Positions 4,687 through 48,474 of a stretch of DNA of 64,000 bases are shown piece after piece. The notes below the pieces were generated by a model that was given only the letters and a program-made list of their open reading frames with translations, was not told the DNA's origin and ran no database searches. Numbering within the stretch: position 1 is the first letter of the stretch; each line of letters begins with the position of its first letter. Source of the stretch: an uncultured Gammaproteobacteria bacterium (GTDB lineage Bacteria; Patescibacteriota; Patescibacteriia; UBA9934; GWF2-40-263); the NCBI GenBank assembly GCA_964399675.1, contig CAYNRK010000001.1, positions 137,221-201,220 on the forward strand. Direction: 5' to 3'. The position numbers and the translations under genes are program-made.

Positions 4687-5877
4687 CTACTCAACACCCT
4701 CTCTTTTTTTGGGCCCTTCGACATCGATGATAGAGCCTCCCGGAAGCCCGACCTCCGGGAGACGATCCCTTCGAACGAGGGTGGGCTTAACCCAGACGGT
4801 TTTTTCAGCGGTCGGGTCGTTGCCTTTGCCCCGAGGTCTACGCCAATGCGCACGTCGCCAATGAGGAGCAACTTCCCCACCTGAAGCTGATGCTTTGCCC
4901 TCGAGGGCGTCCCATTCAGCTTGGGTGAGTCGAAATCGATTACGGACGACGGTTATGTCGGCACCTGTCGTTATCGCCTTCGGGTCGATTGTTTCCACCT
5001 TCGCGCTTTTCACGGCTGTGGCATGTCGGCTCTTGGGTTGAAGCGAGGCAAGGTACTGACAAAGACTCGCAACGATTCGGAAAACACCTTGTGAGCAGCG
5101 TATTGCTTCGAGCCTTTTTTCGTCGAGATCAACACCTGAGGAGAGCTTGCGGTTTGAGAGCCAATCTGCGCTTTCAACGACTCTCGTGTTATCGGTTGCG
5201 CCGAAATGGAGTCTCGTTGGGGCTCTTGTCTTGTATCGACGGATAGTTGCCAACAACGTTCGGCCCGCTTTTGAGAGGCGTTTTTTTCGAATCGACTTTG
5301 CTATAGCCCGAAACTTTGCCTCGGGTATCATCTGGAAGCTAGCTTTTGGCGGCCCATACGCGCTGATGAGTGTAAACCACCCATCATCTTCGAATTCAAG
5401 TCGACACACGACAATACAATCGCAGCTGAAATTATCGTCGATAAGAAGCGGTTCTTCTAGCGTGATCGCAAACGAATCAAATGGCCAAAGAACCTCTGAC
5501 CAGGAGAGTGTGTGCAGAGAGGTGCCCCGAAAGATGCTTGAGACTTCTCTGTTAAGGTGGAATACTTTTCTTGAAGACTGGGTCCACCCAAAAAGCGCCA
5601 ATGCGTCATAGTCTTCGGGGCTCATGTGTTCGTTCAACGTGTCGGAATAAAAGAAGCGACTCTTGTCGAAGTCTGTTTCCGGTCTGGTGCGAAGGAGAAA
5701 CTTACGAAAGGCTCGCCAGTTCCTTACAGGTCCGCTTTTTCGAGTTAGCTTATCTGGAAGATTTTGACCCACTACTGTCTGGCTAAGCCCAGTGAAGCGC
5801 GCTTCCTGCTCCCAAGTTTGGAGCACCTGATCGATTCTGGTGATAGGAATTTTGTATCCCGACACTTTGCACCCCAC
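4687..5877 (-). CDS. Hypothetical protein on a high-GC island (about 56% GC). GTG start.
   Basis: Long ORF in a GC-rich segment. No recognisable motif. Several overlapping antisense ORFs are GC artefacts. Confidence 0.45.
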   Translation of the reverse strand: MGCKVSGYKIPITRIDQVLQTWEQEARFTGLSQTVVGQNLPDKLTRKSGPVRNWRAFRKFLLRTRPETDFDKSRFFYSDTLNEHMSPEDYDALALFGWTQSSRKVFHLNREVSSIFRGTSLHTLSWSEVLWPFDSFAITLEEPLLIDDNFSCDCIVVCRLEFEDDGWFTLISAYGPPKASFQMIPEAKFRAIAKSIRKKRLSKAGRTLLATIRRYKTRAPTRLHFGATDNTRVVESADWLSNRKLSSGVDLDEKRLEAIRCSQGVFRIVASLCQYLASLQPKSRHATAVKSAKVETIDPKAITTGADITVVRNRFRLTQAEWDALEGKASASGGEVAPHWRRAHWRRPRGKGNDPTAEKTVWVKPTLVRRDRLPEVGLPGGSIIDVEGPKKREGVE

Positions 5878-6100
5878 TCTTGAAAGGAACGCAAGATATC
5901 AATTTAAGACCATTATTGGTATCTTGTCAAGTCATAAACAACCATTGACAAACACCCAAAAACAAGCAACAATACTCAAGTATGCAACAACCTTGCTACC
6001 TAATTACAGATATGAAATTCGCCGGACAAGTTTCTCCGGCTAATTTTCGTTTCTCGGGTAGCAAAGTGTTGATGTAATATTTTTCTTAGATATCAATACT

Positions 6101-6133
6101 AAAACAACCCGGGAAACCGGGTTGTTTTGTTGT
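6101..6133. terminator. Hairpin aaaacaacccgggaaaccgggttgttttg.
   Basis: Stem cccgg/ccggg with flanking AACAACC/GGTTGTT extension and a T-run. Confidence 0.5.
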
Positions 6134-6226
6134 GTAAAAGCAACATCAATAACTCAATGAGCTCAAACGGATCGTGATCGAACTGATCCGGTTGGTTTGA
6201 GCTCGCTAAATCTAAGCCGGCGTCGG

Positions 6227-6250
6227 ACCCAGGCTAAAGCCTGGGGCTAC
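6227..6250 (+). repeat. GPSL element copy (acccaggctaaagcctggggctac), intergenic.
   Basis: Matches the 25-mer cgcccaggctaaagcctggggctac found inside truB and rpsE with a single base difference. Confidence 0.75.
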
Positions 6251-6266
6251 TGCAACAGGAGATCAA

Positions 6267-7439
6267 ATGTCAGCTAGGAGAATCTACTACACTTTCTCAG
6301 CACTGATGTGTTTGGGAATGGGAGCGACTGTAACGGTTTACGCACCGTTCCTGCTTTCGATTGGCCTGACACTTGGAGAGGTGGCTTTGGTCAACTCAGT
6401 CTTCTGGGCAGTCATGATCTTGGCCGAGCTACCAACCGGAATGCTCGCTGACGGAAGATCCCGTGCGTGGTCACTCAAGGTTGGTGTTGTGCTGCAGTCG
6501 ATCGGGGCTGTTGTGTATCTAAGTGCTGTTGGTTTTTGGACAGCTGCTCTTGCAGAAGCAATTGTTGCTGTTGGCATGGCGTTTCTTTCAGGGGCGCAAT
6601 CCGCCTGGATCGCAGACGCGCTTACAAGGGAAGGCAAGTTCGATGACCTAAGGCATGTGTACGCAACCGAGCTCTTGATTCGCACGCCAATGTTTCTGGT
6701 GGGCGGAGCTATTGGAGCGCTTTTGGCACTAGTGTCGTATCGTCTGATCTGGGTGCCCCTGATTGTCATGGGAATTGTTACCGCACTTACGGCACACAGA
6801 TTCATGAACGGCCAAGGTGAACCGCTTGAACAAGTAACGGAAAAGGAAGCCTTGCTTTTGAGTCTCAGACATCTTCGCTCAAGCCGTGCGCTAAAGTGGG
6901 TGATCGCAACAATGATTGTGTTTGGATGTGTTGTATCCTTTAACCACTTTTGGGCGCCGTTTTTTGAGCCAAAGGTTGGTACACTCGGACTCTCATGGGT
7001 TTGGGCAATCATCTACCTTTCATTCATCCCATCTGGGTGGATGGTAAGAAAACTCGGAATCGGTGCCGGACAAGAAGGGAAGTACATTGTACTCTCGATT
7101 CTTATGAGTGGTCTTGGGCTTATGCTGATCGGTGTGACCGACGTGCTTGTTGGATCGCTTGTGATAGCCATGTTCCATGAGTTTGGTAGAGGCATGTTCC
7201 AACCGCTCACAGATTCGTTTGTGCAGCATCGGGTCAAGAGTGCGTATCGCGCAACGTTTGGATCACTTCAATCGTTTCTTGGAAAGATCGGCTTTGCTGT
7301 GGTGCCATTTGTAGTATGGCTCCTCATTCTTGGAAAGCCTGACACGCCCGAGACCATTACAAAAGTCTGGGTAGTGTGTGGTGCGATCATGGTGGTTGGC
7401 TCTCTTGCGCTATTCGTGCTTCGGCCGAAAAAGAACTGA
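6267..7439 (+). CDS. MFS-type transporter (about 12 TM helices). High GC (about 55%).
   Basis: Hydrophobic helices throughout. LAELPTGMLADGRSR-like loop 2-3 motif typical of MFS. Confidence 0.6.
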   Translation: MSARRIYYTFSALMCLGMGATVTVYAPFLLSIGLTLGEVALVNSVFWAVMILAELPTGMLADGRSRAWSLKVGVVLQSIGAVVYLSAVGFWTAALAEAIVAVGMAFLSGAQSAWIADALTREGKFDDLRHVYATELLIRTPMFLVGGAIGALLALVSYRLIWVPLIVMGIVTALTAHRFMNGQGEPLEQVTEKEALLLSLRHLRSSRALKWVIATMIVFGCVVSFNHFWAPFFEPKVGTLGLSWVWAIIYLSFIPSGWMVRKLGIGAGQEGKYIVLSILMSGLGLMLIGVTDVLVGSLVIAMFHEFGRGMFQPLTDSFVQHRVKSAYRATFGSLQSFLGKIGFAVVPFVVWLLILGKPDTPETITKVWVVCGAIMVVGSLALFVLRPKKN

Positions 7440-7493
7440 ACGCATCTTCGGGTGCGTTCTTTCAAATAGAAAGGATCGCCTTTTAGAAGACGA

Positions 7494-8132
7494 TCAGGCG
7501 CTTGATCTGCTCAAGCGTAGAGAGTTGCCTTTGCAGGCAGCGATCATGCGGGCGCGAGTTCGCTTGACCCAGCGATCCGCTTTTGCTTTTGTGGGAAAAG
7601 CGGCAAGCAGTACTTCGGTAAACCGATTTCCTGTCTTTGGCTCACCATCAGGCCGGATAAGGCAGGTTCGATCTGGCGACTCGTACTTGGGGTCAGGGAA
7701 CAGGGGGCCGAAGTTGGACCAGCTGACTTGGATCAAGTCTTCTTTGAAGGTAAGGTTGCTGTAACCTTCTTCATCAGGTGTTACGCTGAATCCGAGCCTG
7801 TCTGCTGAGCGTTCGATGTGTTTACCGATGCGCTCTGTATCTACACAGACCGATGTGCCCACAGGGATGAAGCGGAACGTGTAACCGTTCATTGTGAACG
7901 AATGTTCAGCCGAAGCTGGGCCAACGTGCACAACAGGCAAATCATGCTCTTCACGCAAGCTGCCTGACGTGTAGTCGTCAATGGTCCATGTTGGAACACA
8001 CACCATGCCGACCCACGCTTTTGCGGTCTTGCGCGCAAGACGCGGTTTGGTAACGCGACGGTGATACATCGCCCTTGCCATAGCAAGGTGCACCTCAAGA
8101 CCTTCGTCACGATCCTTAGGTTTAGTAGGCAT
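7494..8132 (-). CDS. Hypothetical protein, high GC.
   Basis: ORF with an AAGGGGGTG ribosome-binding site before ATG at 8132. No family motif recognised. Confidence 0.45.
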   Translation of the reverse strand: MPTKPKDRDEGLEVHLAMARAMYHRRVTKPRLARKTAKAWVGMVCVPTWTIDDYTSGSLREEHDLPVVHVGPASAEHSFTMNGYTFRFIPVGTSVCVDTERIGKHIERSADRLGFSVTPDEEGYSNLTFKEDLIQVSWSNFGPLFPDPKYESPDRTCLIRPDGEPKTGNRFTEVLLAAFPTKAKADRWVKRTRARMIAACKGNSLRLSRSSA

Positions 8133-10140: not shown

Positions 10141-10445
10141 AAAACTTCTCAATGGCTTGAGAAGTCAACAGCAGGCTCGCGCTTGCGAGCTAAACGAAAT
10201 CAGATTTTAGGCAGCACGCTTTTATAACAAAAAACCTCGCTTGATATACAAGAGAGATGAATTGATTGTAGTTGATAAAGCGTTTATTTGCATAAAATGT
10301 CTGCTTTCGAGCAAGGTCTGTTGATGCCTCCCAAGTCAGATAATCAATAATTACGTGCGCTTAGCTTAGCAAAAAGTCGGATATATGTCAAAGGCTTTAA
10401 TTTATCTTAAATTCGTCCAATTATTGATTGAAATGAAAAAGGGTG

Positions 10446-11849
10446 TCACCGTTTGGCAGCACCCGAGCAAAGACGCAGTGTTTCAAGATGCGATGGATCA
10501 TCGTTGATTCCCGCGCAGAGAGGTTCTTCGTATTCGATCCATGTTCCGGCTGGATGTGGGATTTTGTAACGCACAATCCCTTCTTCGGGAATGACATCCA
10601 TTTCGATCGCCCACAGCGAGTGGAAGGACAGGTTGAGGTTTCCTTCGGCTCTTGGAAGGAGCAAGGCAAAGGACGTTGGACGGGCGATATCTGAATCCGT
10701 CTGGTGTCGATCGTGAACACGGCGCCATAGTTCTATTGCTGAGATCAGCGGAACGCCGCCCTGCATATCCAAGATCCATTTGTAACTCCTCGTACCTATG
10801 ACTAACGCGAGGAGACGATCGAGTTGACGAAGTGTTTTCTCCGTCCTGTCCAGATCATCAATCCAGAAGTTCACTCCTGGCTCAAGTGGACACTGTGGAA
10901 GGAGTTCGATTCCGGCATTGATCAGCTGTCGTGCAAAGTGTGCAGACTCAGGTGTCACGTGCTCTGGATGAGAGACATGGGCTGAGAGCTTGATCTGGAC
11001 ACCGGTCTCATCACGAAACCCGGTAAGCAAGCGAACGAACTCTTCGTCAAACCGGAATGGAAGCCCAAGAAAGAGTGCTCCTGTGCAGATTCTGAAGCTC
11101 CGCAGGTACTTGGCTGTCTTGAGTTCATTGAGGATGCTTCTCCAGACGTTGTTCGACAGAAGCATTGGTTCGCCGCCAGAGAAGAGAATGTCATACACTC
11201 CGGAGAACTCCGGCCTTGTATTCCATTCTTGCACCAGCCATGCTGTCTGTTGAACCGGCTGTGGGATCCAAACAGTCTCTGACCTCCCATCCTTATGGAT
11301 TACTCGAAGCGGCTCTTGGAAACGCGTTTGCGGACCACGATAGCAACCTGCGCAGCCGATAGGACAGGATACGCGTCCTGCACCTCTACCAAGAATCGGG
11401 AGGAATGAGGCATATCCCGGTTTGTGCGTTGCTAGGTAAAACTTCCTGTGTCCTCCGTCGCGCAAAACGACTGAATTCGCCCTTTGGACACCGTAGGGAT
11501 CTGGAGCGGGTTTTAGTCCGAGTCGAGGAAGAAACTTCCTCACCCCTTCGTGTTGAAGGAGATTGAGCGGGAGAAGACTGAGGTCGAATGAACTCAGATA
11601 TTCTCTTAGCAGATCCTCTTTGCCTCGGAATTCCGGAAAGAGGTTAAGAAAGGAATCAAGGTCGCTGGACGTCAAGCGATTCTTGACATGCCATTTCCAA
11701 TCGCCCCAAGAAGATTCCTTGTCTCCAGTGTGCGAGGATTCGATTCCGATTCCGTTCCGGCCACAGAGTATTGCAGCCTCGGAATCGAGATGACGCGCCA
11801 TCCAGGCGTTGCGAGCTTGTCGCAAAGTCTCGGTTAAGAAGGTGCACAT
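10446..11849 (-). CDS. KamA-family radical-SAM aminomutase-like protein (lysine 2,3-aminomutase/EpmB family), on a high-GC island.
   Basis: N-terminal W-K-W-H-V-K-N-R motif. CPIGCAGCYRG is a CxxxCxxC 4Fe-4S site. FSGGEPML and SFRICTGAL correspond to KamA ISGGDGLL and RIGTRAP. AGGAG ribosome-binding site before ATG at 11849. About 57% GC. Confidence 0.65.
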   Translation of the reverse strand: MCTFLTETLRQARNAWMARHLDSEAAILCGRNGIGIESSHTGDKESSWGDWKWHVKNRLTSSDLDSFLNLFPEFRGKEDLLREYLSSFDLSLLPLNLLQHEGVRKFLPRLGLKPAPDPYGVQRANSVVLRDGGHRKFYLATHKPGYASFLPILGRGAGRVSCPIGCAGCYRGPQTRFQEPLRVIHKDGRSETVWIPQPVQQTAWLVQEWNTRPEFSGVYDILFSGGEPMLLSNNVWRSILNELKTAKYLRSFRICTGALFLGLPFRFDEEFVRLLTGFRDETGVQIKLSAHVSHPEHVTPESAHFARQLINAGIELLPQCPLEPGVNFWIDDLDRTEKTLRQLDRLLALVIGTRSYKWILDMQGGVPLISAIELWRRVHDRHQTDSDIARPTSFALLLPRAEGNLNLSFHSLWAIEMDVIPEEGIVRYKIPHPAGTWIEYEEPLCAGINDDPSHLETLRLCSGAAKR

Positions 11850-11977
11850 GTGTACTCCTAAGCCAAGTGGCACGTTCTTCTTATCAGAGATTGTTTTTGA
11901 AATCAATTTTTCAAACCAAACCAGCCGCTTTTACACGGCTGGTTTGTTGGTCCCAGATGGCCTGCCTGTCGGCAGGT

Positions 11978-12054
11978 TGGTGGACCCGACCGGATTCGAA
12001 CCGGTAATTCTCGGTGCTAACGCGAACGGGGTTACCAATTACCCCCACGGGCCC
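11978..12054 (-). tRNA. tRNA-like sequence. The acceptor stem with a G3:U70 pair (Ala-like), the D-arm, the T-arm GGTTCGAATCC and a CCA end are canonical. The anticodon arm is aberrant, so this is possibly a pseudo-tRNA or an integration-site remnant.
   Basis: Minus-strand read GGGCCCGTGGGGGTAATTGGTAACCCCGTTCGCGTTAGCACCGAGAATTACCGGTTCGAATCCGGTCGGGTCCACCA. The anticodon stem TTCGC/CCGAG has a C-C mismatch, and the loop GTTAGCA has a non-purine at position 37. Confidence 0.4.
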
Positions 12055-12098
12055 AGATCCAATCTGGGTTATGAAACAAAAAACAACCTCGTTCGAGG

Positions 12099-12183
12099 CG
12101 TCTTTTGTTAGCACCGAGATAGACCCGTGTGGATCCCCACTCGCTTATAGAAGATTGTAGCAACAAAATCGTGTTTTGTCAAA
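12099..12183 (+). repeat. About 85-bp direct repeat, copy A, upstream of the TylF-like methyltransferase gene.
   Basis: The sequence ...cttatagaagattgtagcaacaaaatcgtgttttgtcaaac is identical to 13166-13206. The left part gttagcaccgagat is an inverted copy of tRNA-like nt 12009-12021. Confidence 0.7.
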
Positions 12184-12250
12184 CTGATTCAAGAGAATTG
12201 ATTTAGCGAGAAAAATTGAAAAACAAATTTGAGAACGATACAATAGGTTT

Positions 12251-13000: not shown

Positions 13001-13121
13001 GATTAGTCAAACCAAACTAACCCCTCCGGAACAATCCTAACGATCGTTAGGATTGTTCCGGAGAGTATTGAAGCAGTTCTTAATCAAAAACTCCCCACCG
13101 CAATAAACGAAAGGGAGCTTT

Positions 13122-13206
13122 TTGTTGGCACCAAGATTTCGATCCGTGTGGACCCAACTTGCTTATAGAAGATTGTAGCAACAAAATCGTGTTTTGTCAA
13201 ACAGTT
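13122..13206 (+). repeat. About 85-bp direct repeat, copy B, flanking the other side of the methyltransferase gene and abutting the truB 3' end.
   Basis: About 85% identical to 12099-12183, including an identical 41-bp core. Confidence 0.7.
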
Positions 13207-13893
13207 TTAGAGCTGCGAAAGGAAGTCTTTGACTGGCAAAATTTTTAATTCAATATTTTCTTTTGTAAGTTTCTCAAGAGAGTAAGCGTTCTTTAAAAAG
13301 TAAGGGCCAATGCTGGTGCGTTTAAGTTCCTGGACATAACCACCAGTGCCAAGTTCTTTTCCAAGGTCGCGTGCAATCGCTCGGATGTAAGTTCCAGAAG
13401 AGCAATGGATTCTAACTCGCAACGGTGTTTCTGAAACCAGTTCTAAATTAAATATCGTTACCAAACGCGACTTGGCTTTAATAGGCTTTCCTTTGCGAGC
13501 AGCTTCATACATTTTTTGGCCTTTGATTTTTATGGCTGAGTAAGCCGGTGGAATTTGTTCAATCTTTCCCACAAATTGTTGTAATGCTTTTTTGATTTCT
13601 TTTTCGCCCAGGCTAAAGCCTGGGGCTACCTTTTCGAGTGTTCCGGTTCGATCGTCAGTATCAGAACTTGCACCCAACACAAACTCTGCTTCATATTTTT
13701 TATCAAGCCCAACAAGTTTTGACATCTCACGTGTTGCAGCACGTCCAATGCCAACAATAAGCAACCCTGTTGCAAACGGATCTAAAGTTCCGGCGTGCCC
13801 AACACGTTTCTCATTGGTTAAACGCCTTATGCGTGCGACCACATCATGTGAAGTCATACCATCCGGTTTGTCTGTAAGAAGAAACCCTTCCAT
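13207..13893 (-). CDS. truB: tRNA pseudouridine(55) synthase TruB, with an in-frame GPSL element (VAPGFSLGE).
   Basis: LLTDKPDGMTSHDVVARIRR...GHAGTLDPFATGLL is the catalytic Asp motif. The element is at 13605-13630. Confidence 0.9.
   Translation of the reverse strand: MEGFLLTDKPDGMTSHDVVARIRRLTNEKRVGHAGTLDPFATGLLIVGIGRAATREMSKLVGLDKKYEAEFVLGASSDTDDRTGTLEKVAPGFSLGEKEIKKALQQFVGKIEQIPPAYSAIKIKGQKMYEAARKGKPIKAKSRLVTIFNLELVSETPLRVRIHCSSGTYIRAIARDLGKELGTGGYVQELKRTSIGPYFLKNAYSLEKLTKENIELKILPVKDFLSQL
13605..13630 (+). repeat. GPSL element copy inside truB, in-frame, encoding APGFSLGE.
   Basis: cgcccaggctaaagcctggggctac is identical to the reverse complement of 60284-60308. Confidence 0.8.
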
Positions 13894-16324: not shown

Positions 16325-16456
16325 TGTCATCCCGAGCGAAGGCCCGTCAGACGGGCCGAAGCCGAGGGATCTCGAATTATTTATGCGAGATCTCTCCGCT
16401 CGCGGAGCCTGCCCTGAGCGAACGAAGTGAGTCGAATGGGCTCGGTCGAGATGACA
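16325..16456. repeat. TGTCAT-family GC-rich palindromic intergenic element (tgtcatcccgagcgaag...ggtcgagatgaca), copy 1.
   Basis: Terminal inverted repeats TGTCATCCCGAG/CTCGGTCGAGATGACA. Internal nested palindromes ggcccgtcagacgggcc and gagatctc. About 60% GC in an AT-rich context. Confidence 0.75.
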
Positions 16457-17514: not shown

Positions 17515-18189
17515 ATGAAGCTTTCAGTCCTTTTCATCATCTCGCTCATATCTGCGACCGGTTGCATTTCCATGCGGCCAATTCCTGATGACTCGCAGGT
17601 CTCTTACTACGAGCCAAGGGTCGAGCGCATATTCAAAAGGCTGAAGGCCGAGTTGCCGGCAAATAGTCCCCGAATGACCTATCAGATCTGGGACTCCTCG
17701 TCTGTTCCAGAAGGAAAAAGACTTTTCGAAGCTAATCTGGACACGAACACGGTCTACATACGTGTCTTGGTTCTCAGATCCTTTAGTGAAGATACTCTTG
17801 CCTTCGGGATCGCTCATGAGATAGGTCATCTTGTGGAACACGAACGCCGTCACTCTCAGATGAGGTTGGCTTGGATCGGTGGCTCAGGAGCGATCGGTGC
17901 TGCAGTGGGTTACGCAACGGTCTGGTGGGCAGGAGCAATCTCCGGAGGTGTGGCACTTTTGGTGATTGGTCCTCCTGTCTTACTCGGTATGTTGCGTTCA
18001 GGTGAAACCGATATTGATCGATTCGCAGTTCAGCTCACCAAACGAGCTGGATTCGATGCCACGCGCGCTGTTGAAGAATGGTGCGACCTTTTCGAAGCTC
18101 TTGAAGTTTCATCTGGCCAAACTCCAGTCACTCATCCGCCTGCGCAGAAGCGATGCCCTGACTTGCAAAGAGCTCTTCATCAACCTTAG
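17515..18189 (+). CDS. Lipoprotein with an HExxH zinc-metalloprotease motif and two C-terminal TM helices (M48/M56-like). Higher GC (about 52%).
   Basis: Signal peptide with lipobox ISATGC. HEIGHLVEHE motif. Hydrophobic WIGGSGAIGAAVGYATVWWAGAISGGVALLVIGPPVLLGML. Confidence 0.5.
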   Translation: MKLSVLFIISLISATGCISMRPIPDDSQVSYYEPRVERIFKRLKAELPANSPRMTYQIWDSSSVPEGKRLFEANLDTNTVYIRVLVLRSFSEDTLAFGIAHEIGHLVEHERRHSQMRLAWIGGSGAIGAAVGYATVWWAGAISGGVALLVIGPPVLLGMLRSGETDIDRFAVQLTKRAGFDATRAVEEWCDLFEALEVSSGQTPVTHPPAQKRCPDLQRALHQP

Positions 18190-27844: not shown

Positions 27845-27889
27845 CCCGCCCGCCGAAGCTCTGAAAGAGCGAAGGCGGGTTTTTTTTTG
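27845..27889 (+). terminator. Rho-independent terminator after ndk (cccgcc...ggcgggttttttttt).
   Basis: GC stem with a nested gctc/gagc stem, followed by nine T. Confidence 0.65.
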
Positions 27890-27961
27890 GTTTGGATATT
27901 TAAGATTGACTTTTTTGAGATTTTTGATTATCGTGACATTCGCCTGGCATTGAGGAGGGGT

Positions 27962-29095
27962 ATGTATAGCTGGCAGGAACTTCAGCGACTGCATTCAGAC
28001 TGGGTGAAGATTCATAAAGGAGCAATCGACAAACGAAGAGCACTGCTTGATAGCGCGTCGTTTATGGATCGTTGGTTGTTCATCAACGCGATCCAGACCG
28101 TGCGAACAGGTCGCATGCGACTTGTTACCAACTGCGCGTACGGCTTTGCCGATCAGCTCTATCTGGATGCTAGTGTTGCTGCAACACCTCATCTTGATAG
28201 GTTGCTTGATCTGGCACTAAAGCCTGGGCCAGATGGTCAACCCGATCCTCAAAGGTGGTTTGAGGGCATTAGCCTTTTCGATCAAGCAATCGCAATTACT
28301 AAGATCGAAAAAGAAGAACCGCTTGAGAGAATTGGTCGCGTTCTTGACATGTTTGTTGATCTGCTTGAGCGAGAGATCTTCACTGGAGAGTTCAACAAGA
28401 TCGACTTCTACGCATACCATGATCCAGAACAAGAGTTTGTGGTAGCGCGTGAGAATGTTGGGATTGGCAAACACCTTACTCGTCCAGGACTTCAGAGACG
28501 CAAGTCCAGACTCGCTTGTAGGCAGGTGCAAAAAGGAAGCATTGCCTACATGCATCACAGGATCAAGGATCCCTTTCTGACATGGCTCAAAATGCAGCGT
28601 CAATGCAAGTTGGCCAGGAAAGAGGATGTCTTCAGCATTAATGATCGTTGCGGCTTGACCAAGGTTGTTCCAACCCAGCAAGATGTTCTGGCCTTGTGGG
28701 GAAGCATACGTCGGCTTGTTGTGGTTAGTGGTGGAACCATCACACAAGAACTTCGCGCTAACTACAACATTGGTGAACCACTTGATGAGGAAAACGGTTC
28801 TTCATCAAGCAAGTATCGATTTGCTCAGGCGTGTTTTGTTTGGCAGGGAGTGGAAATCGAACTTCAGTTCATGACTTTCCACGACTACTTCACAAGCCTT
28901 CGATCACTCTCAGAAGCAAACCACGAACTCTACAAAATCCGTCAGGCTTACAACCACACCTTTCCTCTTATTTGGCCGGTTCAAATCTACGAAGTGAATT
29001 GGTCAAATCCTTACGTTCGTCATCAGATGTCAGCTTGGAAACAGGCGCAACTTGGTTGGCGGGTCAACGGGGACTCTTCGGAACGCTCAAGCTAA
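27962..29095 (+). CDS. Hypothetical protein (about 50% GC).
   Basis: GGAGG ribosome-binding site immediately before ATG at 27962. No family motif recognised. Confidence 0.45.
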   Translation: MYSWQELQRLHSDWVKIHKGAIDKRRALLDSASFMDRWLFINAIQTVRTGRMRLVTNCAYGFADQLYLDASVAATPHLDRLLDLALKPGPDGQPDPQRWFEGISLFDQAIAITKIEKEEPLERIGRVLDMFVDLLEREIFTGEFNKIDFYAYHDPEQEFVVARENVGIGKHLTRPGLQRRKSRLACRQVQKGSIAYMHHRIKDPFLTWLKMQRQCKLARKEDVFSINDRCGLTKVVPTQQDVLALWGSIRRLVVVSGGTITQELRANYNIGEPLDEENGSSSSKYRFAQACFVWQGVEIELQFMTFHDYFTSLRSLSEANHELYKIRQAYNHTFPLIWPVQIYEVNWSNPYVRHQMSAWKQAQLGWRVNGDSSERSS

Positions 29096-30263: not shown

Positions 30264-30296
30264 GTGAGGCGGCAGACAGCCCGTCTGCCGCCTCAC
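30264..30296 (-). terminator. Perfect 14-bp inverted repeat gtgaggcggcagac-agccc-gtctgccgcctcac. It is the terminator of the high-GC minus-strand operon and the left island boundary.
   Basis: 14-bp perfect stem overlapping the stop codon, followed on the minus strand by a U-rich tract. Confidence 0.6.
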
Positions 30297-31123
30297 GTCG
30301 TTGTTGAGTTGCCAAGCCACCAGGTTGACCGGGCAATCATGCCCAGCTCGCCTGTGTCTAGCTTGTAGTAGGGATTGAGATCGGTTGCCTTGCCGCACGA
30401 ATGTACGGGCATGCCAACCCTTGCGAAGTGGTCGACGACCTGATCGTCACCCAAGATGAGCTTTTGGTACGCACCGCGCCAGACCTTGCGGTCGGTAGCG
30501 CGGTCGGTGACCTTGACATTGATTGTCATGATGCCTGTTGTTGGGTCAAAGCGTGGGGTGCGTGCGTCGTTGACAGGGGTGCCGTCGAGTTCAGCTTGCC
30601 AGACAACAGTTTTCCCAACACGACATCGATCAAGGTAGCCTTGTCCGATGAAGTCCATGAGAAACGCTCCGTCTTTTGCCAGCGGATCGATCATGCCGCG
30701 CGTGATGCGCAGCAGGAGATCCGGATCAACAACATCACCGAAGGAGTTGCCAAGCAAGATACTCGCATCGAAGCGTTCATTAGTGCGCCATGTGGTGAGA
30801 TCTCCAATGTGGAGTTGGACACGTGGATCTTGGCCGTGGCTTTTGAGAGCCTTGGCCACGCACTTTGGCGAAAGATCTACACCAACGATTCGTTGAACAC
30901 CGGACCACAGCAGAGCGTTGATGTGTCTGCCCGTGCCAAAACAGGGCAGGAAGACGCTCCTGGGTACGTGGCCAATAAGTCGGATGGCAGTTCCGACTTC
31001 AGCCCAGGCAAGCGCGCTGTTGTCATGGACATCTCTATCGAGCTGTTCCATCACGTCATAGTGACGCGCAACATCGAACTGGGCCGGAGGTTCTGTTCTG
31101 TGTTGATGAGCGGTAGCTTGCAT
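30293..31123 (-). CDS. Class I SAM-dependent methyltransferase (high GC, about 60%).
   Basis: LPCFGTGRH...VGVDLS SAM-binding motif I and post-I acidic residue. Its start overlaps the stop of the upstream gene (TGATG). Confidence 0.65.
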   Translation of the reverse strand: MQATAHQHRTEPPAQFDVARHYDVMEQLDRDVHDNSALAWAEVGTAIRLIGHVPRSVFLPCFGTGRHINALLWSGVQRIVGVDLSPKCVAKALKSHGQDPRVQLHIGDLTTWRTNERFDASILLGNSFGDVVDPDLLLRITRGMIDPLAKDGAFLMDFIGQGYLDRCRVGKTVVWQAELDGTPVNDARTPRFDPTTGIMTINVKVTDRATDRKVWRGAYQKLILGDDQVVDHFARVGMPVHSCGKATDLNPYYKLDTGELGMIARSTWWLGNSTTT

Positions 31124-33051
31124 CACTCCCCTTGGTAGATGACCGGACCCTCTTCAGCGTCGTCAGCGCCGTGGATTCGGAAGCTACCGGTTCGCAGGGT
31201 CATGGTGGATCCAACAAGATCGACATGACCATCCGTTTCCGCGTCCCCTGAGAAGAGGAAGAACGGAGTCAGACGCGTGCGCGCACCACGATCGAGCCGG
31301 ACGTTGCCATCACTGTCGCGGTAGGCCACGGTGTAGCGATGCGAAGCAATGATGTGCTGGGCCACAACCGGGTGGGGGAGTCTGGCTCGCACAGCAAGCT
31401 CTTTTTCCCATTTCATCTGATTCTGAGCCTGGCTGCCAAGCGAAAGGCTGCGTGCACCCCAGGACTTGTTGTCGCCGTCCCAGGCACCGAACTTGGTCAG
31501 CCAGAGATGTCGCTCGTCTCTCACTTGTGGGAGAACACGATCGAGCAGACGCGTCTCTGCCACACAGTTATGCAATGTGGTGAGCGCTGCGGGATCGCGG
31601 CTTTTGATCCAGTGCATCACGTTCGGGTGCCAGAGCGCGGCCATGAGAGCCTTGTTTTCCAGACAGTGCCAGAGCGGGTTCATCATGAAGGTATCTTGGC
31701 TGTCCCAGGCGACCAGTTGATCCAGTCCTCCTGTGTTGACGAAGTTGTCGAAGTAGCCGAAGCGGAAGACAACTGTGTTCGGACCGAGCGTTTGAGGGAA
31801 ACCCTCGTCGCTGCCGTGAACGAATTCGTCGAACCCGAGCGCTTTGAGACGCCCCAGGAAGTCGCTGTTCCATGTGGCCTTGGCTGCATCAGACATGTTG
31901 TCGTGTGGCCACCAGCCTTTCCGTGTCAGCTTTGAGGGGCCGCCGCGCTGGCGAACCGCATCGTGGATCTGTTGAAGGGGCGTGTCGAACCAGATCTCGG
32001 CATCAAGGCCGCGCTCGCGAAGAGCAGCAACGAAGACGGCCTGATCCCACACGTACTCAGCCCATTCGTTGGTGGCGAACACGATGAGTTTGCGACCATC
32101 CAGTAGACGGACGTAACCGTCCAGCATGGTTGTGTCCAGTCCGTAGCCGAGCTCCATGGCGTGCGACATACCCTGTCCGGCAGGGCAAGATTCGAACTCA
32201 GTGATGACCGGGCGGAGTACGCCAGTCACCGGGTCCTTGACCACTACGATGTCCGGTCGCATGAGCATGACCGGGCCGCCTTGCATGAGTGCGGGAATAC
32301 GATCCGGGCGGCCATGATTGAGGATGTGCTGGACGCCGGGATTGCTTTTGTGCAGCGCATGGATCGCCTTGAATGCGAGTGCAAGCGCTTGCCCAAGCTC
32401 TCCCAACTTGTCCAGGAAGTACGTGGGCAGGGTGAAGGGATCGATGAGCTGGCGCCAGGAGACGCCACTGAGCCCTTTGTACCCAATACCAGTCTTGTTC
32501 ATGCGAACGCGCGCGGCCTCGACCTTGTCGCCGGCCGGTTGATTGACTCGGCGGACATGGGGTCCAGCGGCTTCTGCTTCTTGCCAGCCGTCAACGAGCT
32601 CAGGCTCGATGAGCAGGGCATCAGCCAGGTTGAGGCCATGGCCTCCAACTGTGGGCATGTTCTGGATGTCTACCCAGCGGCGCTCGATCGGATGCTCCAG
32701 GGGGCGACCTCGCCTGCCTTTTGTGTCGGTTCGACTTCCTGTTGTCCAGTCAAAACCGAGCATTGCGAACTTCACCTTCAGCGCGTCCAGGATAGGTCCG
32801 TTCTTGGGCCAGGTATCTGACTGTGCTGGAATGGCTACTCCGTTGTCTGGTAGTGTGCTGCCGCTGAGCACCTTGTTGCGCCATTCCCTTGTGGAGCGCT
32901 TGACACCGGATCCTCTCTCAGGACCACTGAGACCATGCTTGCGTCGCATCTCAAGCACCCTTTCGGGCACCACGACCGTGCTCTGGCCTCGTCGGCGTCT
33001 GGTGTTCCAAGTTGCGCCAGTTGTCTGGGAGGTCCTCGTGACTGAGTGCAT
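31123..33051 (-). CDS. Large protein carrying a glutathionylspermidine-synthase-like (GSP_synth/YgiC-YjfC family) ATP-grasp amide-ligase domain in residues about 250-600. The first ~200 residues are Arg-rich and of unknown function.
   Basis: RPDIVVVKDPVTGVLRPVITEFES (compare YgiC [22 protein letters not shown]), ENKALMAALWHPNVMHW (compare [20 protein letters not shown]), and WLTKFGAWDGDNKSWGA (compare VVKPIFSREGANV). GGAGAAAG ribosome-binding site before ATG at 33051. About 62% GC. Confidence 0.55.
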   Translation of the reverse strand: MHSVTRTSQTTGATWNTRRRRGQSTVVVPERVLEMRRKHGLSGPERGSGVKRSTREWRNKVLSGSTLPDNGVAIPAQSDTWPKNGPILDALKVKFAMLGFDWTTGSRTDTKGRRGRPLEHPIERRWVDIQNMPTVGGHGLNLADALLIEPELVDGWQEAEAAGPHVRRVNQPAGDKVEAARVRMNKTGIGYKGLSGVSWRQLIDPFTLPTYFLDKLGELGQALALAFKAIHALHKSNPGVQHILNHGRPDRIPALMQGGPVMLMRPDIVVVKDPVTGVLRPVITEFESCPAGQGMSHAMELGYGLDTTMLDGYVRLLDGRKLIVFATNEWAEYVWDQAVFVAALRERGLDAEIWFDTPLQQIHDAVRQRGGPSKLTRKGWWPHDNMSDAAKATWNSDFLGRLKALGFDEFVHGSDEGFPQTLGPNTVVFRFGYFDNFVNTGGLDQLVAWDSQDTFMMNPLWHCLENKALMAALWHPNVMHWIKSRDPAALTTLHNCVAETRLLDRVLPQVRDERHLWLTKFGAWDGDNKSWGARSLSLGSQAQNQMKWEKELAVRARLPHPVVAQHIIASHRYTVAYRDSDGNVRLDRGARTRLTPFFLFSGDAETDGHVDLVGSTMTLRTGSFRIHGADDAEEGPVIYQGE

Positions 33052-36713: not shown

Positions 36714-36929
36714 ATGGCAAAAAAGAGACCAAAGGTCAGTTACGATTCAGATGCAAAGATTCTTTCTATAAGAGTTTCGTCTAAAAAAAGTGTGGATTCA
36801 GATATTCATGGTAATGTTGTTGTTGATTATGGAAAAGACGGACAACTTGTGAACGTTGACATTATGGACATATCGCTCTCGGAGTTTAAACGAGAACCAG
36901 TTATTAGAAAAATAATCGCCACAGTATAA
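36714..36929 (+). CDS. DUF2283-family small protein.
   Basis: YDSDAKILSIRVS...GNVVVDYGKDGQLVNVDIMD pattern typical of DUF2283. Confidence 0.5.
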   Translation: MAKKRPKVSYDSDAKILSIRVSSKKSVDSDIHGNVVVDYGKDGQLVNVDIMDISLSEFKREPVIRKIIATV

Positions 36930-36950
36930 AAGTTTTTTAATAAAAAAATC

Positions 36951-36977
36951 AAAAAACCGGCCTTAGGTCGGTTTTTT
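36951..36977 (+). terminator. Terminator aaaaaaccggccttaggtcggtttttt.
   Basis: GC stem with A/T flanks. Confidence 0.5.
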
Positions 36978-37075
36978 AAATTGGATTTTTTTGATATAAT
37001 AATTTCTGTCCAAACACCGGCTTGGTTGCGCATAGCCAAGAAGGGCATTGAACAACGAGCGACAAGGAGGACACC

Positions 37076-37645
37076 ATGCGAGCACTCTTGCCTGACAGAG
37101 GGCGAGTCATCGGGTTCTGCGTCCTGATCAGCGCGATGCTGTTGCTGGCCGCAGTACCGGCAACCGCGGAGGTGAAGGCGACCGACCAGTCCCACGACGC
37201 GGACTCGGGGGTCATCTGCTTCCTGAACAACGACGCCAGCCAGGAGCTGACCTGCATCAACCGACGCGCAGAGTCGGACATGTGGGCGATCACCTGCGCG
37301 CTGCGGGACGGCGGCAAGTGCCTGAGCCGAGACAGCGAGCTCATCCTCGTGGACGGCAACCGCTTCATCATGCGAGACGGTCAGCTCATCCTCTGTGACG
37401 GCAACCGCTTCATCATGCGGGATGGGCAACCGCCGTTCATCATGAGGACACCAGCAACAGCTATGCTCCTGCTCAAGGAGATCGGGATGAACCACCCGGC
37501 GGTGGCGCTCCTGATCATGATGCGCGACGAGTTCATCATGCGCACGCCAACAACGCTCGCGCTCAAGAAGTGGCGCGGCGCAACCCAAGCGGTGTCCAAG
37601 GCCGAACTCACGGACGGGACCGCTCCGTTCTCGTTCTGCGTGTAG
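37076..37645 (+). CDS. Secreted/exported protein with tandem FIMRDGQ repeats, on a very high-GC (about 62%) island.
   Basis: Signal peptide MRALLPDRGRVIGFCVLISAMLLLAAVPATA. Repeat LIL(V/C)DGNRFIMRDGQ x2 plus FIMRTP x2. Confidence 0.45.
   Translation: MRALLPDRGRVIGFCVLISAMLLLAAVPATAEVKATDQSHDADSGVICFLNNDASQELTCINRRAESDMWAITCALRDGGKCLSRDSELILVDGNRFIMRDGQLILCDGNRFIMRDGQPPFIMRTPATAMLLLKEIGMNHPAVALLIMMRDEFIMRTPTTLALKKWRGATQAVSKAELTDGTAPFSFCV
37333..37422 (+). repeat. 45-bp perfect-ish tandem duplication (ctcatcctc[gt]tg[gt]gacggcaaccgcttcatcatgcg[ag]ga[ct]gg[tg]ca[ga]) x2.
   Basis: Directly visible at 37333-37377 and 37378-37422. Confidence 0.75.
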
Positions 37646-37783
37646 CGCGACCCCGGCGCAACGCACGAGACAACGGCTCCACACTCAAGGGTGTAGAAAA
37701 GCTGACTTCGGTCGGCTGCTCCTGCATCCTTTTTCATTTTCTTGTGTTTCCAAAGAGCTTTCTGTACATTGAATAGCACAACT

Positions 37784-40256: not shown

Positions 40257-40329
40257 TGTCATCTCGAGCTTGTCGAGAGATCTCGAAAACGCGAGATCCC
40301 TCGGCTCCCGTTGGTTGCTCGGGATGACA
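40257..40329. repeat. TGTCAT-family element, copy 5 (tgtcatctcgagcttg...ctcgggatgaca).
   Basis: Terminal inverted repeats. Confidence 0.7.
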
Positions 40330-40858: not shown

Positions 40859-40993
40859 TGTCATCCCGAGCGAAGCCGAGGGATCTCGCATATTCGAGAT
40901 TTCTCCACTCGCGGAGCCTGTCCTGAGCGAACGAGGTGAGTCGAATGGGCTCGGTCGAAATGACATTAGTAAACAGGCTCGGTCGAGATGACA
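40859..40993. repeat. TGTCAT-family element, copy 6, with a duplicated right terminus (..gtcgaaatgaca...ggtcgagatgaca).
   Basis: About 90% identical to 16325-16456 over about 110 bp. Confidence 0.75.
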
Positions 40994-45719: not shown

Positions 45720-47057
45720 TTAGGCCGGGAGTTCGTAGCGGACTACGTGGAAGGTATTGTCGACTACGAACCAGCTCATCACAGCATGACCATCGACCTC
45801 AGTGAGGCGATCGAAGTCTGAGTAGAGCGGGAAGGTGCCGACCCCAGAGATCGAGTAAGGAGGCATCCTGGACCAGGAGAAGATGTCCGAAGAACCGCCT
45901 GCCCACATGGTCAATCCATCGTGGAGCCGGCGATATATGGGAATGTGTCTGGTGGTAACCGCTGGAGTGACGAGCGACTCAACGCCGTCTTCTGAGAACC
46001 ACACGACAGGTCTGGCCTGGTTTCCATCGGCTTCGTGTCCGATGATCGCGACGCCATTGGGGAGCACAACAATGTCTTCAACGGACAAGATGCGTTTGTG
46101 AGGGAGTCGGCGATTGCTGGCTGAATGCTCGCGCAGGGTGAGCGTCTTCCCATCATCTGAATGTACCCAGAACGTCCTGCCATCTTTCGCGAAGATCTTG
46201 TCATTGCGACAGAATCCATTCCCACCCATCCCATTGGGGGTATGGGAGTTCAGGTAGTTGCCATCAGTTGTGCTGACATGCAACACACCGTCATCATCAA
46301 GGAACAGGCTGTTTGGGATGATCCGATCTTCGTTCCTGAGCTTGATCACCTGACGGCCAAACAGAACCTCTTTGTAGTCTGAACAGCGATGTACAATCGC
46401 AGGAGTGTTATCGCTTCTTGCGACCTTGAGAACGGTTCGTTCGTCCTTTGCCCAGAGAACATCTTCTTCAAAGACCAAGCGGCGGTGTTCCTCACTTTGG
46501 CAGAAGACCCGCACAAACTGTTGGCGATCGTCGGATCTGTCATTTCCTGGGTCAAAGGAAACTGCACACCACTTCGAGCACCCTGCTGTCCAGAAGGTTG
46601 GCGCTTCGATCGGGGTCAGATCCAGATCGAATTCCCAGTCGCCCCAACGAACACCGAAGTGCTCAGCTTCTGCATCTGTGTAAACGAACGCCAGTTTGTT
46701 GCTTCCCTCAGGGAAGTGCGGGTACAGAAGATTGTCTGTATTGTCGATCGGTTCAGAAAGACCCGAAGTAGCTGTCCAGGTTCGAACACCCCGCTTTTGA
46801 TCCCCCACGGCACTGCAGACAAGCGCGATCGTTCCGTCGTGTGCAATGCACACGCTGTCATGGATCACGTTGACTCCTGGCGGGAGTCGAAATGCGTGCG
46901 TTACGTGCGGAGGCAGGCCGATGGGCTTTCCAGCAAGAACTTTGACCGCCTGTTCAAGTCTACCTGGACTGACCTTGCCTGGATGAGCACCAAGGTATAC
47001 AAGGATTTGCGCAAGCGCTTTTTCTCTTCGTGTTGGTCCTACTACTGGACTTGCCAT
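45720..47057 (-). CDS. Hypothetical protein (445 aa), high GC (about 58%).
   Basis: Long ORF. No motif recognised. Confidence 0.5.
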   Translation of the reverse strand: MASPVVGPTRREKALAQILVYLGAHPGKVSPGRLEQAVKVLAGKPIGLPPHVTHAFRLPPGVNVIHDSVCIAHDGTIALVCSAVGDQKRGVRTWTATSGLSEPIDNTDNLLYPHFPEGSNKLAFVYTDAEAEHFGVRWGDWEFDLDLTPIEAPTFWTAGCSKWCAVSFDPGNDRSDDRQQFVRVFCQSEEHRRLVFEEDVLWAKDERTVLKVARSDNTPAIVHRCSDYKEVLFGRQVIKLRNEDRIIPNSLFLDDDGVLHVSTTDGNYLNSHTPNGMGGNGFCRNDKIFAKDGRTFWVHSDDGKTLTLREHSASNRRLPHKRILSVEDIVVLPNGVAIIGHEADGNQARPVVWFSEDGVESLVTPAVTTRHIPIYRRLHDGLTMWAGGSSDIFSWSRMPPYSISGVGTFPLYSDFDRLTEVDGHAVMSWFVVDNTFHVVRYELPA

Positions 47058-47202
47058 GATGAAAGGTCCTTTGCCCGGTCAAAAGACTTACATTTGCGCC
47101 GAAGTTTTCCCCGGACGCACTTGATTGCTTTTGCCGAACTTTAGTGATTGCCACGGGATTGTGACGAAGTTATCTCAACACAATCCATATTTTGAGTCAA
47201 TA

Positions 47203-47246
47203 AATTAAATTGAAAAGCCGTTCGTCACCAGGTGGTGTCGAACGGC
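47203..47246 (-). terminator. Terminator gccgttcgacaccacctggtgacgaacggc plus cttttcaattt (minus-strand sense), 3' of paralog 1.
   Basis: 8-bp GC stem with a nested cacc/ggtg stem. Duplicated at 48401-48444. Confidence 0.6.
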
Positions 47247-47278
47247 TCGTGAGTGGTTGTTGCCCTGAAAGGGCTTGT

Positions 47279-48217
47279 CTACGGCGTGGCCGCGGCCGGC
47301 TCGGGCTCGCTCGCGGTCGGGTCGCCGTTGGTCGGCTTGGCCTCGGCTTCGGGTTCCTCCGCGGTCTCGTCCGCTTCGGACTCCTTGATCTCGGGCGCCA
47401 GGTGCGCGTGCAGGTCCTCGATGCCGTAGGTGGGCGCGGCTGCGCTGAGCTCGGTGAACACGCTGCGCACGACCGTGTCGAAGATCTCGTCCTGCCGCCG
47501 CTCCCACAGCTCGTTGAGCCACTCCTGGAACTCGTGGAGCAGTGCATCGTAGTACGAGCCGGTTGGGTCGAAGCACGCGATCGGGATGTTGTGATCCTCG
47601 CGAGCCACCTGCTGGGCACGCTCGTGCTCGTGCTGGTATACCCCCATGTCTTTGTCGCTGGCGTTGGTCACCACCGTGAGCTGGTTTCGGTGGAGGCCGG
47701 TCAGCGCCTCTATCGCTCCCATCGGGCCGTTGTTGCCGACCGCGATCAGTTGCACGCCGTGTGCATCAAGGGCGCGGTCGTTGTTGAGACGATCGAAGAA
47801 GATCGCACGGATCAGCGGAACGAGCCGCTTGACCAGCGGTTCCTCCTTGCGCCAGCCGTACTCGAGCTCGCTGCTCAGTTCCTCGCGCAGATCCACGAGC
47901 GTGCTGCGCAGGGTCTCGGTCAGGAGCTCCCTGGTCGCGGCCGCGTGCTTCTTCCTGGGCGAGCGTACGAACACCATGCCGGCGTCCACGCTGTGATGCA
48001 GCTCGTAGAGGCCGCTACAGAGCGGACCGTCGTGATCCACGACTGCGGTTTCAGCCAACACCTGGATCCTGCCCGTGGTGGCTGAGTTGAACATGGGTGT
48101 GGTGTTGCACACCACGACCACGCCGGTGTCGGCATCAATCTCCACGCAGATCCGTACTGCCGCGGTGATCGGGTCTGCTGCCACGTCCCTCAGTGACTGT
48201 GTGCTAACGTCTGACAT
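47279..48217 (-). CDS. Hypothetical protein, paralog 1 (312 aa). Acidic Pro/Glu-rich C-terminal tail. High GC (about 63%).
   Basis: About 35% identity to 48475-49401 over the N-terminal 230 aa. The last ~75 aa are nearly identical (FDTVVRSVFTELSAAAPTYGIEDLHAHLAPEIKESEADETAEEPEAEAKPTNGDP). Confidence 0.5.
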   Translation of the reverse strand: MSDVSTQSLRDVAADPITAAVRICVEIDADTGVVVVCNTTPMFNSATTGRIQVLAETAVVDHDGPLCSGLYELHHSVDAGMVFVRSPRKKHAAATRELLTETLRSTLVDLREELSSELEYGWRKEEPLVKRLVPLIRAIFFDRLNNDRALDAHGVQLIAVGNNGPMGAIEALTGLHRNQLTVVTNASDKDMGVYQHEHERAQQVAREDHNIPIACFDPTGSYYDALLHEFQEWLNELWERRQDEIFDTVVRSVFTELSAAAPTYGIEDLHAHLAPEIKESEADETAEEPEAEAKPTNGDPTASEPEPAAATP

Positions 48218-48400
48218 CTTAGCCCCTATGTTTCAGTATTGGCGAGAGACCATCCAGGTTTGCCAGGTTCCTGGAATAGAAACGGACATAGTTGTCCGCA
48301 ACGAACAGAATATAGCAGAGATTTGGGCGGATGTCAATGGTTGAACTGAGCATATTTAACTAAAGAATTGAGAGATTTTGAGAGTAATTACTTAAATTGA

Positions 48401-48444
48401 AAAGCCGTTCGTCACCAGGGTGGTGTCGAACGGCTCGTGTGTTG
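48401..48444 (-). terminator. Duplicate of the 47203-47246 terminator, 3' of paralog 2.
   Basis: Same hairpin, with one extra G. Confidence 0.6.
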
Positions 48445-48474
48445 TCGTTGCCCTGAAAGGGCTTATAGCTCAGG

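Follow-up and report, generated by a model that had tools for sequence, protein, structure and literature searches.

What does a lone radical S-adenosylmethionine (SAM) gene of elevated GC content do in a bacterium with a reduced genome, and how did it come to lie between truB and rny? The question is raised by a 64,000-nucleotide stretch of contig CAYNRK010000001.1 (positions 137,221 to 201,220; "the window"), in which a gene on the reverse strand encodes a protein related to lysine 2,3-aminomutase (LAM) and has a tRNA-like element upstream. LAM is the textbook enzyme that combines radical-SAM chemistry with pyridoxal 5′-phosphate (PLP). The original prediction took the gene for a KamA-family aminomutase or an EpmB-like enzyme. 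Judging from sequence comparisons and a structure model, we favor another assignment: the gene probably encodes an intact and likely functional member of a small clade of LAM-fold radical-SAM proteins that lacks the PLP lysine, would act on a small amino-acid-like substrate, and was probably acquired from another bacterium of the candidate phyla radiation (CPR).

The list of open reading frames (ORFs) for the window contains a 486-aa reading with a TTG start (10446-11906, reverse strand). An ATG at 11849, with AGGAG located 7 nt 5′ of it, gives 467 aa. A database protein of this length (P0001) is 100% identical to the gene product, and both P0001 and all homologs begin at the ATG, while the TTG-extended version overlaps hairpins in the leader. 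Thus, the true start is almost certainly the ATG, and based on the homolog starts and the AGGAG site we take the gene as 10446-11849. The frame is full length and encodes 26 of 26 residues that are invariant in the clade. Two of the predicted motifs were recovered as described, the N-terminal W-x-W-x-x-K-N-R as WGDWKWHVKNR and the CxxxCxxC cluster as CPIGCAGCY. SGGEP is also present, in a single copy and not in the several that had been described.

A Pfam scan of the protein gave no match over threshold, and no radical-SAM model exceeded its gathering score. The KamA-type hidden Markov models (HMMs) of NCBIfam match residues 235-360 only, with 34-56 bits against curated cut-offs of 199-650 (E ~1e-15). 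In detail, the scores and cut-offs are 55.4 and 199.2 for TIGR00238, 55.9 and 650 for TIGR04368, 53.8 and 525 for TIGR03820, 47.7 and 600 for TIGR04468, 34.2 and 396 for TIGR03822, and 39.6 and 369.3 for TIGR03821, the EpmB model. A filing under KamA or EpmB, for which TIGR00238 and TIGR03821 had been named as the check, fails on both models by a wide margin.

Homology to LAM is nevertheless borne out. The structure of the enzyme from Clostridium subterminale (KamA, 2A5H) was the sole match in a phmmer search of the PDB. A profile of 50 family sequences matches it at E = 1.4e-22, and hhalign gives a probability of 99.5% across LAM residues 12-326. The AlphaFold2 model of the protein is confident (pLDDT 91.7, pTM 0.92), and with this model Foldseek ranked 2A5H first by far (E = 2e-15, TM 0.56-0.67), followed by SkfB (E = 6e-4), a maturase of ribosomally synthesized and post-translationally modified peptides (RiPPs). 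Both hhalign and Foldseek support a LAM-type fold that includes the N-terminal WxxWxW domain, and the radical-SAM cluster and SAM motifs are intact. No SPASM domain or RiPP recognition element (RRE) was detected in the Pfam and NCBIfam scans. Identity to LAM is just ~20%, and the protein is longer (467 aa compared with 416 aa), with an insertion of ~30 residues after the cluster motif.

Homologs are few. We found 53 among 5.8 billion protein clusters, and an HMMER scan of 1.84 billion representatives returned ~46 cluster representatives with >150 bits. Members of the clade score at least ~220 bits at full length, whereas ordinary KamA proteins of 380-420 aa begin near 130 bits. By these scores, the clade is rare and separate from canonical KamA.

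To compare active-site residues we built an alignment of 80 clade members and 14 canonical sequences, LAM and E. coli EpmB among them; the C-terminal sequence of LAM was verified against 2A5H. The cluster cysteines C162, C166 and C169, which align with C125, C129 and C132 of LAM, are invariant in 80/80 clade members, so the cysteine motif on which the original call depended holds up on alignment. The [4Fe-4S] and SAM machinery is retained (CxxxCxxC, SGGE, R253 and Q319), as are, in LAM numbering, SGG, R198, Q258 and Y287. The N-terminal domain in its WxDWxWxxxNR form and the SGG(D/E) motif are likewise common to LAM and the clade. Arg134 of LAM binds the substrate carboxylate in that enzyme. 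Its column is K or R across the clade (R171 in the window protein), so a basic residue is shared at this position.

The residues associated with PLP are different. The column of the Schiff-base lysine (LAM K337) holds Asn throughout the 80 clade members, whereas 13 of the 14 canonical sequences have Lys there, and the Gly-rich loop that precedes it is lost in the clade. LAM Y113, E236 and Y288, which are invariant among the canonical sequences, are also replaced. Conversely, the LAM G200 column is Cys in 80/80 clade members. This residue (C255, in the motif RICTG) lies at the C-terminal end of barrel strand 251-256 in the AlphaFold2 model. The LAM zinc-site cysteines are absent, and the columns of C268, C375, C377 and C380 are T/S, I/V, D and variable in the clade; the structural zinc site is likewise not universal among canonical KamA proteins. 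Given the replacement of K337 by Asn and the HMM scores below the cut-offs, we do not file the protein as KamA or EpmB. The prediction therefore stands as far as homology to LAM is concerned and falls on the assignment to a KamA-family aminomutase or EpmB-like enzyme, and the label "L-lysine 2,3-aminomutase" carried by clade proteins is probably wrong.

EpmB (YjeK) belongs to the same superfamily, and the E. coli protein aligns by tblastn over the central barrel with ~25% identity. However, EpmB retains the PLP lysine (GGEPSK) that the clade is without, and no efp or epmA lies near the radical-SAM gene. A role in the modification of elongation factor P (EF-P) had been suggested. With E. coli EF-P and EpmA as tblastn queries, neither the window nor the 6-8 kb around the radical-SAM homolog in 28 other loci yielded a homolog. 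On this result for the loci searched and the low TIGR03821 score, we rejected an EF-P/EpmB pathway.

We then clustered neighboring proteins over 29 loci that carry a homolog. In 12 of these, the gene located 100-160 bp upstream of the homolog encodes a winged-helix regulator of the TrmB family, divergent and 248-265 aa long. Among the hosts are Magasanikbacteria, Falkowbacteria and unclassified Patescibacteria on the CPR side, and Pacearchaeota, Iainarchaeum, Altiarchaeota and Nanoarchaeota among the DPANN archaea. A thirteenth TrmB case (L116) has an OPT oligopeptide transporter after the gene. In eight loci, from Kuenenbacteria, Patescibacteria, Brocadiaceae, Acidobacteria, Sphingomonadaceae and further contigs, the homolog lies within an operon for a Liv-type ABC importer comprising a binding protein, permease and ATPase. 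The best solved relatives of the binding protein, 3TD9 and 4GNR, bind branched-chain amino acids. The association with TrmB and with importers suggests a small amino-acid-like substrate. Two loci with distant homologs (L010 4410-6004 and L012 4180-5829) encode two uncharacterized proteins between the Liv binding protein and the radical-SAM gene. One has 370-397 aa and is 28% identical between the loci, the other is a predicted membrane protein of 134-178 aa, and neither has a Pfam or NCBIfam match.

On the reading that we favor, the enzyme would still cleave SAM to a 5′-deoxyadenosyl radical but would act without lysine-anchored PLP, in which case it would be neither a classical 2,3-aminomutase nor an EpmB. 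The Liv-type operons, the OPT neighbor and the TrmB-type ligand-sensing regulator in CPR and DPANN relatives suggest a substrate that is imported, either a small molecule resembling an amino acid or a short peptide. More speculatively, the active-site Cys could serve as a hydrogen-atom donor. The PLP-independent radical-SAM epimerases NeoN, PoyD and YydG use an active-site Cys in this way, and they have in common with the clade a radical-SAM core and a single additional Cys that is strictly conserved and predicted to point into the active site. The comparison serves as a working analogy only; those enzymes belong to other radical-SAM subfamilies with no detectable specific sequence relationship to the clade. 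The exchange of the PLP lysine for Asn and the invariant Cys are a lead to chemistry that has not yet been assigned to the LAM scaffold. The distribution over CPR bacteria and DPANN archaea, beside a sensor-regulator or an importer, suggests scavenging or salvage where host-derived amino acids are needed.

The neighboring RNase Y is 79-82% identical to proteins of Candidatus Uhrbacteria, which identifies the host as a CPR bacterium, as had been proposed. For synteny we used 80 RNase Y loci from metagenomes. Their common gene order is TrxR-IF2-TruB-RNase Y-HU-(MFS)-aaRS, where MFS is a major facilitator superfamily transporter and aaRS an aminoacyl-tRNA synthetase. The distance from the end of truB to rny is 200-350 bp in the closest relatives, where the rny promoter comes directly after the stop codon of truB. 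A radical-SAM gene, a TylF-like gene or a tRNA is present at this site in none of the 80 loci, which supports the claim that the radical-SAM gene was acquired. The truB-rny gap of the window is 3.05 kb, due to an insertion of 2.8 kb that holds a TylF-like methyltransferase gene, the tRNA-like element and the radical-SAM gene (Table 1). From truB, the order is copy A of a duplicated promoter-leader unit, a 20-bp hairpin, the TylF-like gene, copy B of the unit, the tRNA-like element, the radical-SAM gene and the rny promoter. The last of these is the native promoter, retained ~50 nt past the radical-SAM stop codon, and it marks the left edge of the insertion. Nucleotide alignment of the truB-rny spacers of relatives did not resolve breakpoints, as the spacers are too diverged and only a hairpin at the rny start aligns. 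A Pfam search of the neighboring genes in the window identified no integrase or transposase.

Copies A and B are in direct orientation, each with the promoter and ~60 nt of leader, and bracket the TylF-like gene; both units also share a GGTTTGGTTTGA tail (11906-11929 and 13002-13025). The duplication might be what a single-crossover (Campbell-type) insertion left behind, or it might stem from the doubling of a small transcription unit. An Rfam search of the duplicated leader unit returned nothing meaningful. The hairpin that separates the copy A transcript from the end of the TylF-like gene resembles a bidirectional terminator. The TylF-like gene was absent from the other homolog loci as well as from the 80 syntenic loci, and it has no linkage to the radical-SAM family elsewhere. 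We considered whether this 249-aa neighbor is a counterpart of the TrmB regulators, some of which also have 249 aa, but the two are unrelated.

In six distant relatives (L074, L081, L083, L067, L071 and L085) the truB-rny gap contains other genes, encoding a 369-aa protein, a 516-aa membrane protein and small membrane proteins. Such lineage-specific genes indicate that truB-rny is a variable spot with recurrent insertion.

The composition of the radical-SAM gene differs from that of its surroundings. Its coding sequence has 52.3% GC, not the ~57% first reported (the top 150-nt windows of the region reach 54.7%), and its GC content at third codon positions (GC3) is 0.53. Even at this lower value the gene is clearly atypical, as core genes of the window have a GC3 of 0.26-0.36 and the host core has ~40% GC. 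The elevated stretch runs from ~10440 to ~12120. The stretch covers the tRNA-like element as well as the gene, and this high-GC island is one of many in the window. From its position within this segment, the tRNA-like element either arrived with the gene or arose afterwards.

In a neighbor-joining tree and identity matrix, P0001 falls into a star-like CPR clade with 56-77% identity, its nearest members being 68-69% identical. A gene of this kind in a CPR genome had been called unexpected, but its nearest relatives are themselves Patescibacteria. Some hosts of the clade have ~50% GC and a gene that matches (L016 and L116), while in the window and in L004 the gene is elevated in GC. From these patterns and the CPR relatives, we infer that the gene moves among Patescibacteria, and the donor was probably a CPR lineage of higher GC content. 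On the reading favored here, the gene would have left its usual regulator behind when it came from this lineage. Contigs from at least three samples carry an identical locus. The locus documents a gene-sized horizontal transfer between CPR lineages into the variable truB-rny spot, with no mobility genes nearby.

Table 1. Features in and around the truB-rny interval (window positions)
Feature	Position	Strand	Remarks
Native rny promoter and leader	10153..10392	-	TTGACA, 17 nt, TAAGCT, then gtaattattga; compared with spacers of relatives
LAM-fold radical-SAM coding sequence, clade with Asn for Lys, 467 aa	10446..11849	-	GC 52.3%, GC3 0.53
Residues of the radical-SAM protein (467-aa numbering)			CxxxCxxC C162/C166/C169; SGGEP 224-228; invariant C255; invariant N404
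5′ untranslated segment	11850..11977	-	Two hairpins (CCUGCC/GGCAGG and ACCAGCCG/CGGCUGGU) and AGGAG; no promoter-like site
tRNA-like element, 77 nt, tRNA-Ala(AGC) by ARAGORN	11978..12054	-	128 nt 5′ of the radical-SAM gene
Small terminator/attenuator-like hairpin and T-run	12086..12099	-	In the leader, upstream of the tRNA-like element
Copy B, duplicated promoter and leader, ~90 nt	12100..12189	-	~90% identical to copy A
Leader segment complementary to the anticodon-to-T-arm half (11992-12021)	12107..12136	-	Perfect 13-nt core
Near-consensus sigma-70-type promoter	12154..12182	-	TTGACA, 17 nt, TACAAT, with TG; faces the tRNA-like element and the gene
TylF-family methyltransferase gene, 249 aa	12251..13000	+	37.5% GC, host-like
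Perfect 20-bp palindromic hairpin	13022..13065	.	Between the copy A transcript and the end of the TylF-like gene
Copy A, duplicated promoter and leader	13118..13207	-	Starts directly after the truB stop, where relatives have the rny promoter

The tRNA-like element has features of a bacterial tRNA-Ala or of the tRNA-like domain of transfer-messenger RNA (tmRNA): a perfect 7-bp acceptor stem with G3:U70, GG in the D-loop, a canonical GGTTCGAATCC T-arm with a TTCGAAT T-loop, and an encoded ACCA end. In ARAGORN and in the minimum free energy (MFE) fold of the 77 nt alone it forms a cloverleaf (z = -0.85). However, its anticodon arm is irregular, with a mismatch and non-standard lengths of connectors and variable loop, and the AGC anticodon is not expected in a bacterial tRNA-Ala. 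Against Rfam RF00005 the element fell short of the 29-bit gathering threshold. A permissive search matched it best to the tRNA-like domain of tmRNA, at 23.7 bits, with the tRNA model lower, so it stays under 24 bits where genuine tRNAs of related CPR genomes score 56-68. The wording "tRNA-like remnant" is thus fair, given a call by ARAGORN that lies below the Rfam score for tRNA. When exact matches to the 3′ end of the element were sought, only a high-GC phage tRNA came up (L114 6655-6731, IMG/VR UViG_2795386114_000004). It has an acceptor stem and T-arm identical to those of the element, with an exact 25-nt match at the 3′ end, and we judged this probably coincidental.

Unlike a tRNA gene, the element lies in what is probably the 5′ leader of a protein gene: a promoter lies upstream, and the promoter scan between it (12182-12154) and the radical-SAM gene revealed no other promoter-like site. 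Transcription of the gene would then start at a duplicated promoter of host type and pass through a structured leader in which the tRNA-like element is included. Also unlike a tRNA, the element has an arm complementary over 13 nt to the leader upstream. This degree of complementarity was reached in 1/5000 shuffles, and copy A manages 5 nt only. Two of the differences between copies A and B lie in the 13-nt core and improve the pairing. The MFE fold of the 308-nt leader has -137 kcal/mol (z = -8.8), and in it the long-range helix replaces the anticodon stem. This helix may reflect regulation, RNase P-type processing, or the origin of the tRNA-like element by inverted duplication.

A bolder version of our reading, which we would call rather unlikely, joins these observations. 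The clade would be a PLP-independent offshoot of the LAM fold, common to ultra-small CPR bacteria and DPANN archaea, that performs new radical chemistry on a scavenged amino acid or dipeptide, such as a Cys-assisted epimerization or another rearrangement. It would be regulated by a dedicated sensor of the TrmB type, and in the Uhrbacteria-like lineage of the window an RNA leader would replace this regulator. The tRNA-Ala-like domain would switch between the cloverleaf and the 13-bp leader helix, and the leader would act as a signal for RNase P processing or as a charging-dependent signal for the downstream gene.

Other explanations of the gene have to be weighed against the one we favor. A PLP-dependent amino-acid 2,3-aminomutase (KamA, AblA, or the glutamate/arginine type) that makes a beta-amino acid, with PLP bound either non-covalently or through a different lysine, for example the nearly invariant K143, appears unlikely. 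It would agree with the LAM fold and its N-terminal WxDWxW domain, the basic residue at the Arg134 position, a conserved Asp near LAM Asp293, and the JGI auto-annotation of some members as "L-lysine 2,3-aminomutase", and the amino-acid transporter context suits a free amino-acid substrate. However, the Asn at K337 throughout the clade, the loss of the Gly-rich loop, the three further replacements of KamA-invariant residues and the low scores of the curated models all argue against it. Moreover, K143 lines up with Arg112 of LAM, a position that canonical enzymes also fill with K or R, and is thus not a new PLP lysine. Modification of a protein or peptide, either as an EpmB-like step on EF-P or in RiPP maturation, is in our view quite improbable. 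EpmB is itself a KamA-family member, SkfB was second in Foldseek, and one relative adjoins an OPT oligopeptide transporter, but the SkfB match is weak (TM ~0.3) and generic for radical-SAM cores in a protein that has neither SPASM nor RRE. The low TIGR03821 score and the lack of efp and epmA in the loci searched also count against this role, as does the absence of a conserved small ORF or precursor-like peptide beside the gene. When the 624 small ORFs flanking the 29 loci were clustered as possible RiPP precursors, only frames overlapping TrmB or from near-identical genome pairs grouped together.

Two further alternatives concern the arrival and the fate of the gene. As tRNA genes are classic targets of integration, the element 128 nt upstream could be the decayed remnant of a tRNA gene into which the radical-SAM gene was inserted site-specifically. 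In one other locus (L115) the gene follows a genuine tRNA-Cys and tRNA-Leu, and in another (L015) a tRNA-Glu flanks the module. Yet these are the only adjacent tRNAs among the 30 homolog loci, in which ARAGORN found no such tRNA-like element beside the homologs, and we rejected a tRNA as a conserved partner. Adjacency in 3/~30 loci is near chance, by a rough estimate based on the typical density of tRNA genes in CPR genomes. The integration-target claim fares no better at the locus itself: 0/80 syntenic relatives have a tRNA between truB and rny, the element is inside the high-GC segment, no integrase or transposase is adjacent, and the far end has no tRNA-derived direct repeat, the sole flanking repeat being the 90-nt duplication of promoter and leader. 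Neither did IMG/VR viral contigs yield a family member, nor PADLOC a defense-system match, and we rejected a phage or plasmid vector on these grounds. Integration into a tRNA gene is therefore very unlikely. We consider it equally hard to credit that the gene is a non-functional hitch-hiker that has been decaying since its transfer. Such a gene might well be without the TrmB regulator and transporter genes of its relatives and have an atypical GC content, but a full-length frame with every clade-invariant residue, a confident structure model, a good ribosome-binding site, a strong predicted promoter upstream and an identical sequence across contigs of several samples are not what decay would leave.

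Several points weigh against the reading we prefer, that of a PLP-lysine-free LAM-fold enzyme acquired from a CPR relative. The loss of the lysine may be compatible with PLP that is bound non-covalently and makes its aldimine with the substrate itself. Beyond LAM residue 326 the alignment is by MAFFT and not a structural superposition, and the Asp293 column moves by one between alignments. The TrmB and transporter partners were seen in relatives only, and the window has neither, so that the substrate is deduced second-hand. For the donor lineage, the best match is just 69% identical. Transcription from the promoter at 12182 through the tRNA-like element is itself a deduction from the arrangement of sites. 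Searches of the literature, aimed at a KamA-like clade independent of PLP or at aminomutases in CPR bacteria, brought up nothing relevant and no paper on the clade.

Elsewhere in the window, about a dozen other genes have a GC3 of 0.48-0.86, compared with 0.26-0.36 for the core, and most are without a Pfam match. The segments of atypical GC are 1-1500, 4687-8132, 17515-18189, 27887-29095, 30293-33051, 36827-37684 and 45720-49401, and one of the genes is annotated as AcrVA2-like. These genes give the genome the look of a mosaic in which small foreign insertions are scattered. Two adjacent genes of very high GC content, with a GC3 of 0.85 (47279-48217 and 48475-49401), share a 183-nt stretch with 98% identity and have similar upstream sequence (the regions concerned are 47199-47482 and 48386-48684). 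A foreign gene seems to have undergone tandem duplication here recently. The MFS transporter gene at 6267-7439 is syntenic with that of relatives (42-59% identity) and has a GC3 of 0.51 here; it may be a xenologous replacement in situ.

Repeats also occur in the window. At 103-461, an imperfect 6/12/18-nt repeat in 18 copies encodes a low-complexity tract rich in Gly, Glu and Ala within the high-GC ORF at 7-909. A 43-nt element that runs from CCCCCCTTTTCAAGGGGGG to TTAGGGGGGTTA forms a terminator-like hairpin and is present in six copies, at 2031, 17409, 21047, 44757, 44907 and 45630. Further repeated palindromic elements, similar to repetitive extragenic palindromes, are located at 16346-16456, 40272-40329, 40860-40965 and 63849-63906.

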